NCBI RefSeq assembly: GCF_003790525.1
Contig: NZ_CP033635.1
DNA length: 64,000 nt
Strand: one strand, 5' to 3'
Source: Escherichia coli
GTDB lineage: Bacteria > Pseudomonadota > Gammaproteobacteria > Enterobacterales > Enterobacteriaceae
A model generated the notes under the pieces. It saw nothing but the letters and a program-made list of their open reading frames with translations. It did no database searches and had not been told where the DNA came from. Positions 58,059 to 59,095 of this stretch are shown here, piece by piece (within the stretch, counting starts at the first letter, position 1; each line of letters starts with the position of its first letter). The translations under genes and the position numbers were made by a program.

Positions 58059-58264
58059 ACGTATTCGCTCAGGCAGGGGGCGCTGGTTGGGAACTCAACG
58101 TTGGCATGGTTTCGCTGCTCTTGTGTAGATGTGTTGCAGTTATTTGCGACATTCCGCCGGAGTAGCGGAACTATGGAAAACGGCAATTGGCGCTCTTATC
58201 CCTTAGCTTTGTAAGGCTTAATTTTGGTAGAATGGGGAATCGTTTAACGGAAAAAAACAATCAG

Positions 58265-58759
58265 ATGATTTCTTTTCTATCCGATGAATTTGAGGAATTT
58301 CCGCAGGGAGATTTTTTAAATCATCTCTATAGGTTTTCGGTAGACCATCATCATTTTATCGTGATATTTAGCCCTATTGATATTAGCGATGCGGAGTACC
58401 ATCAATACCGTAGCGAGGAAGTTGGATTTGAAATCCCAACTAATTGTTTTGATGTGAAATTTGATAGGCAAGAAAACTTTGATAGTGGTAACTTTTACAT
58501 GCCCCCCGCCGCAACTGAATGCTCGAGGCGCAGACGCTTTACTGATGAACTCGCAGAGGCGCTAGCAACGATTATTGAAAAGCATTACATCATTTATCAT
58601 GCCAGGGCTTATCTTGCCATCGCAGAGAATGACAAGTTGAAACGTTACTATGACCGGATTTTACACAATGCCCCGGCTAATGTAGCATATAGAGTAATCA
58701 AAGATGTTGGAGAGGAGGAACGAGGTTATGCCATACAAACCGAATGTTTCCGAACTTAA
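58265..58759 (+). CDS. hypothetical acidic protein, about 164 aa (start uncertain; maximal ORF from TTG at 58187, alternative ATG at 58232)
   Basis: ORF-track 58187..58759; visibly AT-rich; HHH and YHxY motifs; no family recognised. Confidence 0.55.
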   Translation: MISFLSDEFEEFPQGDFLNHLYRFSVDHHHFIVIFSPIDISDAEYHQYRSEEVGFEIPTNCFDVKFDRQENFDSGNFYMPPAATECSRRRRFTDELAEALATIIEKHYIIYHARAYLAIAENDKLKRYYDRILHNAPANVAYRVIKDVGEEERGYAIQTECFRT

Positions 58760-58874
58760 GAAAATGACTGTTGCAGAGCGCAAGAAAGAAGCCATGCGCC
58801 AGCTTAAAGCATCCTTTGAGCGCGCCAGCATTGAAGGGACTTTGCATAAACGCTCTGCAAAGTCTGTTGCGTAA
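58728..58874 (+). CDS. hypothetical small basic protein, 48 aa (MPYKPNVSELKKMTVAERKKEAMRQLKASFERASIEGTLHKRSAKSVA)
   Basis: Below the ORF-track size cut-off; translated by hand; ATG preceded by GAGGAGGAA Shine-Dalgarno 7 nt upstream, lying inside the 3' end of the preceding ORF (32-nt overlap); followed by a terminator. Confidence 0.55.
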   Translation: MPYKPNVSELKKMTVAERKKEAMRQLKASFERASIEGTLHKRSAKSVA

Positions 58875-58888
58875 TGAAAGATTTCAAT

Positions 58889-58914
58889 AACCCGCTGCGG
58901 CGGGCCTTTTTTTG
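58889..58914 (+). terminator. rho-independent terminator after the 48-aa ORF
   Basis: CCCGC-TGCG-GCGGG hairpin followed by CCTTTTTTT. Confidence 0.75.
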
Positions 58915-59095
58915 CCCTCAGAAAATCCCCTCTGACCTGCCTCAGGGATTATATACAACCTTCAGTTAATTAGCTGCGCACCATACGCGGCCCGAGCCTT
59001 ATCGCCTTGTTCAAATTCGACAATTCGTCGGCCAATTTCCCCGAACGTCGCGGTGCTAAGTACCGTATCCGTCCGGGCGTATCCGGCCAGAATTT

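Follow-up and report, generated by a model that had tools for sequence, protein, structure and literature searches.

A composition junction downstream of nanQ in Escherichia coli and the small two-gene module probably gained there

How did an AT-rich segment of about 0.9 kb come to lie directly after nanQ (yhcH) in Escherichia coli, and what does it encode? We address this question for a 64,000-nucleotide stretch of the E. coli contig NZ_CP033635.1 (the window), in which base composition changes twice within about 1 kb between nanQ and a convergent five-gene operon. The best explanation of the whole, to which we give a probability of roughly 0.75, is that this junction is the scar of a horizontal gene gain at a polymorphic chromosomal site. 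The AT-rich DNA carries a pair of overlapping genes, which we regard as an uncharacterized but testable family and as a modest lead of moderate interest.

Anatomy of the junction

Positions 57000 to 61000 of the window are 100% identical to the chromosome of E. coli SMS-3-5. Upstream of the junction, the open reading frame (ORF) list and the RefSeq annotation give nanA, nanT, nanE, nanK, and nanQ, which together have a GC content of 54.7%; GC content then falls to 43.1% over 881 bp and rises to 57.2% in the part of the convergent operon that lies inside the window. A composition step of this kind had been described in an earlier sequence-only reading of this DNA and is borne out, as are the coordinates given there, with similarity to other E. 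coli ending at 58059 and the first operon coding sequence (CDS) ending at 59096. The features of the junction are as follows.

57594 to 58058, plus strand: nanQ (yhcH), the last gene common to other E. coli; similarity ends at 58059
58060 to 58087, unstranded: GC-rich (68%) junction segment of 28 bp, of untraced origin, holding the left repeat arm and found among E. coli only in the 28 carrier genomes
58062 to 58077, unstranded: left arm of an inverted repeat of 16 nucleotides (nt), 13 of 16 matching
58088 to 58968, plus strand: AT-rich (43.1% GC), probably imported module with similarity to non-E. coli DNA
58936 to 58951, unstranded: right arm of the inverted repeat, inside module-homologous DNA and conserved in the Serratia oryzae copy (L018) and in metagenome contig L012
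58966 to 59083, minus strand: relic of yhcG (DUF1016/PD-(D/E)XK family), internal, approximately codons 24 to 68, about 118 nt with a 15-nt gap
59074 to 59095, minus strand: 3' flank of the operon, 22 nt, with one arm of the terminator hairpin, whose second arm and T run have been lost

The AT-rich segment (58088 to 58968) shares 92% nucleotide identity with a contig of S. oryzae J11-6, and metagenome contigs match the module at 90.7% from 58127 onward (L012 and L013) and at 85.4% from 58210 onward (L014 to L016). The left breakpoint lies at 58059/58060. At the right, SMS-3-5 switches from insert to relic after CAGTTA, continuing with ATTAGCTG, whereas in S. oryzae, L012, and L014 the module copies run on into sequence common to all three; the E. 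coli copy was therefore cut from a longer stretch. The junction sequence of the SMS-3-5 locus is CAACCTTCAGTTAATTAGCTGCGCACC.

Between the insert and the operon lies what is left of yhcG. The relic, which RefSeq annotates as a partial DUF1016 pseudogene at 58968 to 59090, translates to ...ARTDTV..LSTATFGEIGRRIVEFEQGDKARAAYGAQLI and corresponds to residues ~24 to 68 of E. coli K-12 YhcG, a protein of the PD-(D/E)XK nuclease family; it differs from the K-12 gene in the small part retained, in its 15-nt gap, and in its identity to the alleles found, which is 74 to 80% over the full length and up to 89% over 73 nt. At the syntenic position it aligns with the yhcG genes of five E. coli loci, with BLAST E values of 1e-20 to 1e-31. 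The relic and the operon flank join at a shared CCGGGCG, and from 59074 the sequence matches the operon 3' flank of genomes with intact yhcG. About 246 bp of those genomes are gone here, comprising the yhcG start, its upstream region, and the distal terminator arm with the T run, and at the join (59050 to 59095) lies a tandem repeat of 14 nt, CGTATCCG(T/G)CC. The spacer at 58915 to 59095, in which the sequence-only reading saw nothing besides imperfect inverted repeats, thus holds the yhcG relic and 22 nt of operon flank. That reading overlooked the relic and the nature of the AT-rich insert, and its observation as a whole is partly confirmed.

Its statement that no insertion sequence (IS), integrase, tRNA, or obvious direct repeats are visible at the junction agrees with the ORFs, the RefSeq annotation, ARAGORN, and a repeat search. 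No IS, transposase, or integrase occurs among the window ORFs or in the RefSeq annotation, ARAGORN returned no tRNA or transfer-messenger RNA (tmRNA) in 52000 to 64000, and the surroundings of the E. coli insert contain neither a target duplication nor long direct repeats, 14 nt being the maximum for a direct repeat near the junction. A search of 57500 to 59600 against Rfam 15 at a permissive threshold gave nothing credible; its single match scored 17.2 bits against a gathering threshold of 49.5 (E = 0.67). We considered and rejected a classical genomic island, finding no tRNA or tmRNA target, no integrase, and no flanking direct repeats.

The AT-rich dip is moderate when set against a window mean of 51.5% GC (standard deviation, 3.9), and 4.3% of 881-bp subwindows are equally AT rich. 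Stretches that are equally or more AT rich lie elsewhere in the window at ~7500 to 7800, 12250 to 13650, 40850 to 42300, and 52150 to 52600, where GC content is as low as 39% in 881-bp subwindows and 31% in a 300-bp subwindow at 52150.

In a K-12-like genome, yhcG, yhcF, an IS5-split yhcE, yhcD, yhcA, and gltF lie between nanQ and gltD, in line with the statement in the sequence-only reading that K-12 carries yhcG and a degenerate fimbrial cluster after yhcH. Similarity of the window to this genome stops at 58059, one base past the nanQ stop codon, and similarity resumes exactly at the gltD stop codon; gene content thus differs from the K-12-like arrangement, and the composition anomaly is real. 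In our sample of 5,426 complete E. coli genomes, the K-12 fimbrial-cluster state is a minority (K-12-type yhcD is present in 1,136 genomes), and the nanQ-gltD interval is polymorphic, with at least six states. Those seen include the following.

yhcG only, as in O157:H7
only yhcG, in a second and more divergent allele
no genes, nanQ and gltD being 67 bp apart
the K-12 fimbrial cluster
yhcG plus the five-gene VWA/AAA operon
a truncated yhcG next to a small insert annotated “transposase,” the operon being present or absent
the SMS-3-5 type (AT-rich insert, yhcG relic, and operon), in 28 of 5,426 genomes

In its 28 genomes, the AT-rich insert is always at the same site and at least 99.7% identical. 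The five-gene operon is present in 33 genomes, 28 of which carry the insert; in the remaining 5 the operon occurs without it, and yhcG is intact in two of the three of these that were inspected. Divergence sets in at the first base past the nanQ stop codon in each of the alleles examined. Given the many alternative states of the interval and an insert that is always at this position, the proposal that this locus is a replacement hot spot is supported.

Strain-variable replacement loci (integration hot spots, or “islets”) are a known feature of E. coli pan-genome structure. The nanQ-gltD interval resembles them in its conserved flanks, alternative gene sets, atypical composition, and border gene relics, but it differs in that the border has no tRNA, integrase, or IS and in that the unit is only 0.9 kb long and joined via a few shared nucleotides. 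Strain-to-strain variation of this kind at the junction is an ordinary genome feature. A literature search on yhcG and DUF1016 gave no paper on the nanQ-gltD interval among the titles listed.

The small insert annotated “transposase” (L011, 3985 to 4460; L035, 12060 to 12530) is different from the AT-rich one. It encodes a 101-amino-acid (aa) protein, replaces the same 3' part of yhcG, and begins at the first base past the nanQ stop codon. In E. coli ECO20 (L025, 9475 to 9583), dcuC is missing between sspB and nanR and the nanQ-gltD interval is also empty, which marks dcuC as a second variable point in the same neighborhood.

History of the locus

Genomes with an earlier state of the locus exist, in which the order is nanQ, an intact yhcG, a 198-bp spacer, the five-gene operon, and gltD. 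In the SMS-3-5 lineage, foreign AT-rich DNA of about 0.9 kb sits immediately past the nanQ stop codon, and what has been lost is yhcG except for about 118 internal nt, the spacer between yhcG and the operon, and half of the operon terminator. We regard as well supported a history in which the operon arrived first and one lineage later acquired the 0.9-kb module once, with deletions that left the yhcG relic. Because the two relic junctions share only 3 to 7 nt (the left junction has no comparison sequence) and because transposase, integrase, tRNA, and target duplication are all lacking, we infer that the gain and the losses came about through illegitimate (microhomology) recombination.

Some observations weigh against this account. 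The relic is only 74 to 80% identical to every yhcG allele in the 5,426 genomes, whereas the flanks are 96 to 99.8% identical, and no closer source of the relic, above ~80% over the full length, was found among the E. coli genomes or the plasmids searched. No immediate ancestral or donor allele, and no host of one, thus came to light, and the events cannot be placed in a firm order. In addition, the 16-nt inverted repeat that brackets the insert is unlikely to have arisen by chance, its two arms being the sole matches across the 64 kb of the window, where 0.24 would be expected, and it hints at a specific mechanism.

Such a mechanism might involve a site-specific mobile element, either a non-autonomous unit like an IS or a miniature inverted-repeat transposable element (MITE) or a cassette moved by an external recombinase, whose ends define the junctions. 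The arms of the inverted repeat come to within 3 nt (left) and 15 nt (right) of the breaks, in Proteus cibi the module is flanked by the copies of a 60-nt direct repeat (88% identical) with the terminator hairpin inside it, the module is found at many unrelated sites, and the unrelated small insert of L011 and L035 also begins at the first base past the nanQ stop codon. However, the copies in S. oryzae, L012, and L014 lack the left repeat arm, and the left limits of similarity vary among copies (58088, 58127, and 58210). The E. coli copy, moreover, is truncated at the right rather than complete, and it has neither a target duplication nor a transposase or integrase in the window. On balance we consider a site-specific element improbable, but the 16-nt inverted repeat and the P. 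cibi direct repeat keep it alive as a minority explanation. Even further from the evidence is the idea that the AT-rich segment is ancestral E. coli DNA that most strains have lost. Its fixed position in all 28 carriers would fit, and nothing more; the segment is present in 0.5% of genomes and nearly identical throughout, is 92% identical to DNA of a Serratia species, interrupts a yhcG that is intact in two of three inspected operon-bearing genomes without the insert, and has an atypical composition. Ancestral loss is already contradicted by these results, and we give it hardly any weight.

Three more specific candidates were tried and set aside. An IS or MITE assignment was rejected on the missing transposase, the missing left repeat arm in other copies, and the missing flanking duplication. 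The K-12 nanQ-yhcG intergenic hairpin has no similarity to the flanking inverted repeat and was dismissed as its source. A 14-nt extension of similarity after nanQ between SMS-3-5 and strain 18KM2445 matches at only 10 of 14 positions and was not taken as evidence.

The gene pair in the insert

The insert encodes two proteins on the plus strand, and the elements of the module, read in the direction of transcription, are as follows.

58225 to 58233, plus strand: putative extended -10 promoter, TGGTAGAAT, from sequence reading and not returned by a simple promoter scan
58265 to 58759, plus strand: larger CDS, 164 aa, GNAT-like predicted fold, acidic (isoelectric point [pI], 5.1)
58728 to 58874, plus strand: small CDS, 48 aa, basic (pI 10.3), overlapping the larger CDS by 32 nt
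58891 to 58914, plus strand: intrinsic terminator, CCCGCTGCGGCGGG plus a T run; a Kluyvera hairpin lies at the same place

With its own terminator and two overlapping genes, the module is a self-contained unit. The larger CDS has a GC content of 40.6% overall and 37.0% at third codon positions. At the promoter position, a TG-n-TA motif aligns in three of four copies, with CG in Kluyvera. RefSeq places the start of the larger gene at TTG 58187 (190 aa), upstream of the likely promoter, whereas most homologues of the larger protein are 162 to 165 aa long and start at the position equivalent to ATG 58265; judged from these homologues, the RefSeq start codon is probably wrong.

The ATG of the small gene falls within the conserved Gly-Tyr-Ala codons of the larger protein, and an equivalent overlapping small ORF, similar in sequence, is present in all 14 of the 14 intact related loci examined. 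These include loci from Hafnia (41% larger-protein identity) and Rahnella (38%), four distant metagenome members, and one SIR2 fusion. The small proteins share the motif ..ERK-x-E-x-M-R/K-Q-L/I-K-A-S/A-F/Y-D/E-x-A, in which Lys19, located in a helix, is nearly invariant (Rahnella has glutamine). In Kluyvera genomosp. 3 (L020, ~4455), a one-base deletion in a run of four Gs fuses both frames into a 203-aa product; either the sequence contains an error here or the fusion is natural.

A profile search of 1.84 billion representatives recovered 68 clusters of the larger protein, mostly 155 to 170 aa long. Its AlphaFold2 model (predicted local distance difference test score [pLDDT], 81; predicted template modeling score [pTM], 0.81) has the mixed alpha/beta arrangement of the GNAT fold, and Foldseek searches of the AlphaFold database with it returned only uncharacterized proteins, from Enterobacterales, Pasteurellales, Vibrionales, Alteromonadales, and a few other groups. 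An alignment of 40 sequences conserves a GNAT motif-B-like AEN-x-x-L-x-x-F/Y-Y-x-R-L and the polar residues K65, D67, N71, H107, Y116, Y129, and Y155. In a linker-joined model of the two proteins, the small protein folds as one helix plus a short strand (pLDDT, 88 to 95), which suggests that it may dock onto the larger protein.

About seven of the clusters are 342-aa fusions, and one shorter relative of 287 aa has the same arrangement. The N-terminal domain of the fusions matches sirtuins (E = 2.7e-10); in three of them (P0068, P0078, and P0087), the GAGxS and TxNxD motifs are kept and a tyrosine replaces the catalytic histidine (HLYGC versus HLHGS). One SIR2 fusion also has a small overlapping frame 3' of it. 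These ~342-aa relatives resemble SIR2 anti-phage proteins (ThsA of Thoeris, DSR1, and DSR2) and sirtuins (CobB and Sir2Af1) in their N-terminal SIR2-like domain, but the 164-aa protein of E. coli has no such domain and the fusions differ at the catalytic residue. Searched against PADLOC, a SIR2 fusion gave one weak match (E = 0.006) over 24 residues.

The gene pair occurs in Gammaproteobacteria at unrelated chromosomal sites and on plasmids. Two peptide patterns matched 6 of ~100,000 species-representative genomes. The sites include the following.

Kluyvera: between cstA-like and entH-like (4HBT) genes
metagenome contig with the protein closest to the Morganella one: between argD and crp
Proteus: between kdsB and a DUF218 gene
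one site beside an integrase-like gene
one site beside a Prim-Pol/VapE-like region
eight plasmid records from Yersinia, Serratia, and Klebsiella, one near MazEF and one with a phage portal gene

A Citrobacter sedlakii conjugative element (L008, 6001 to 6183) carries a lone small gene, called at 60 aa, beside ParDE and with no large partner upstream. In the Proteus-like L007, the 60-nt direct repeat (88% identical) that brackets the module lies at 5809 to 5868 and 6591 to 6650 and takes in the final codons of the small CDS as well as the terminator hairpin; it may be what is left of a tandem copy, or else a site of recombination. L021 encodes a small protein identical to that of L007.

Our tentative preference for the function of the gene pair, a reading that we would expect to fail more often than to hold, is a toxin-antitoxin-like or defense-like conflict module, in which translational coupling would yield the small protein and this protein would bind the larger one. 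We lean this way because the module is small, has its own terminator and putative promoter, and consists of overlapping genes whose products are oppositely charged, and because it occurs patchily on chromosomes and plasmids, has addiction modules as neighbors, and has relatives fused to a SIR2-like domain. In its full form, which is a little more doubtful, the two genes would make up a conflict module of Gammaproteobacteria not described before, acting in the manner of a toxin-antitoxin, abortive-infection, or plasmid-maintenance system, whose microprotein would bind and control the larger protein, with coupling to sirtuin-like NAD binding in some lineages.

Several results weigh against a conflict module. 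Neither protein, nor any of 40 family members scanned individually, has a Pfam match at an E value of 0.001 or below (the best, for some small proteins, is DUF5486 at 0.012). PADLOC-DB 2.0 gave no match for either protein or four relatives, NCBIfam gave none for either protein, and PHROGs gave weak matches for the small protein (E values of 0.003 to 0.09). The small protein has no recognizable DNA-binding domain, the 40-sequence alignment shows no conservation of the acetyl-CoA pyrophosphate-binding loop (R/Q-x-x-G-x-G/A, before helix 3), and the module is absent from 50,697 phage records. The predicted contact between the two proteins, moreover, was read from pLDDT alone in a linked model. 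Sequence profiles of the Protein Data Bank likewise gave nothing significant for either protein, and a literature search on the RefSeq accessions found nothing relevant.

Among the closest known systems are the type II toxin-antitoxin pairs of the GNAT/ribbon-helix-helix kind (TacAT, AtaRT, KacAT, and ItaRT), in which an acetyltransferase shuts down translation through acetylation of charged tRNA and is neutralized by its partner. If the pair were one of these, its GNAT-like predicted fold of ~160 aa, its overlapping genes with oppositely charged products, and its sporadic occurrence on plasmids and beside MazEF or ParDE modules would all be expected, and a ~160-aa GNAT-fold protein with a small partner encoded by an overlapping gene, patchily distributed on mobile elements, is indeed what the two share. 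The differences lie in the partner, whose gene is downstream and which has 48 aa and no DNA-binding domain, and in the larger protein, which has no profile match and in which the acetyl-CoA motif is not conserved: at the loop position the E. coli residues are RRRRFT, those of Kluyvera (RRFGFA) fit the pattern, and those of distant members are unrelated. There is no upstream ribbon-helix-helix antitoxin, and the partner has no Pfam or Protein Data Bank match. Because the defining features that can be tested are not found, we do not assign the pair to this family and think such a function quite unlikely. Somewhat less unlikely, and a fair alternative to a conflict module, is an enzyme with a dedicated small protein that serves as its substrate or regulator, as would be the case if the GNAT-like protein acylated a lysine of the small protein. 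The nearly invariant Lys19 in a helix, the conserved polar residues of the larger protein, as in an active site, and the fusion of some relatives to a sirtuin-like domain are consistent with this, but the fusions have tyrosine in place of the sirtuin catalytic histidine, Rahnella has glutamine in place of Lys19, and a patchy mobile distribution would be odd for a housekeeping pair.

The neighboring operon and significance of the locus

The GC-rich operon beyond the relic is convergent with nanQ and with the insert, and its last four genes lie wholly or partly in the window.

59096 to 60265, minus strand: VWA-domain protein, last gene of the five-gene operon
60255 to 62504, minus strand: DUF5682 family protein, from the ORF list and RefSeq annotation
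62522 to 63616, minus strand: AAA-type ATP-binding protein, with weak matches to MadB and GvpN ATPase models
63613 to 64000, minus strand: 3' part of a DUF5691 protein gene that runs off the window

In the genome, a SWIM zinc-finger gene and then gltD follow beyond the DUF5691 gene. The operon order is therefore SWIM, DUF5691, AAA ATPase, DUF5682, and VWA, which is also found in L001 (22097 to 29537), and the operon sits where K-12 has the yhc fimbrial genes and gltF. In combining an AAA-type ATPase gene and a VWA gene, it resembles the MoxR-type AAA+ ATPase with a VWA partner known from RavA-ViaA; it differs in having five genes, including those for SWIM, DUF5691, and DUF5682 proteins. The operon proteins had no PADLOC match beyond a weak one to IetA and no NCBIfam equivalog. 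Literature searches found no paper that mentions DUF5682 or DUF5691, and a search combining MoxR, SWIM, and vWA gave nothing relevant. With the terminator lost, operon transcripts in SMS-3-5 may run antisense into the insert. This loss, the probably wrong RefSeq start of the larger gene, and the origin of the adjacent pseudogene from yhcG are three points of practical value.

By itself, the junction adds little beyond one more well-resolved case of small-DNA gain and loss in E. coli without mobile-element machinery. Both the earlier and the derived states of the locus are available in complete genomes, and the pseudogene beside the insert is a dated scar of yhcG. The gene pair is the more useful lead, being compact, conserved, mobile, and without a curated family. 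It combines a fold predicted to be enzyme-like with an obligatory microprotein partner and has natural relatives fused to a sirtuin-like domain, and the module is small enough for direct tests of toxicity, phage protection, or protein acylation.

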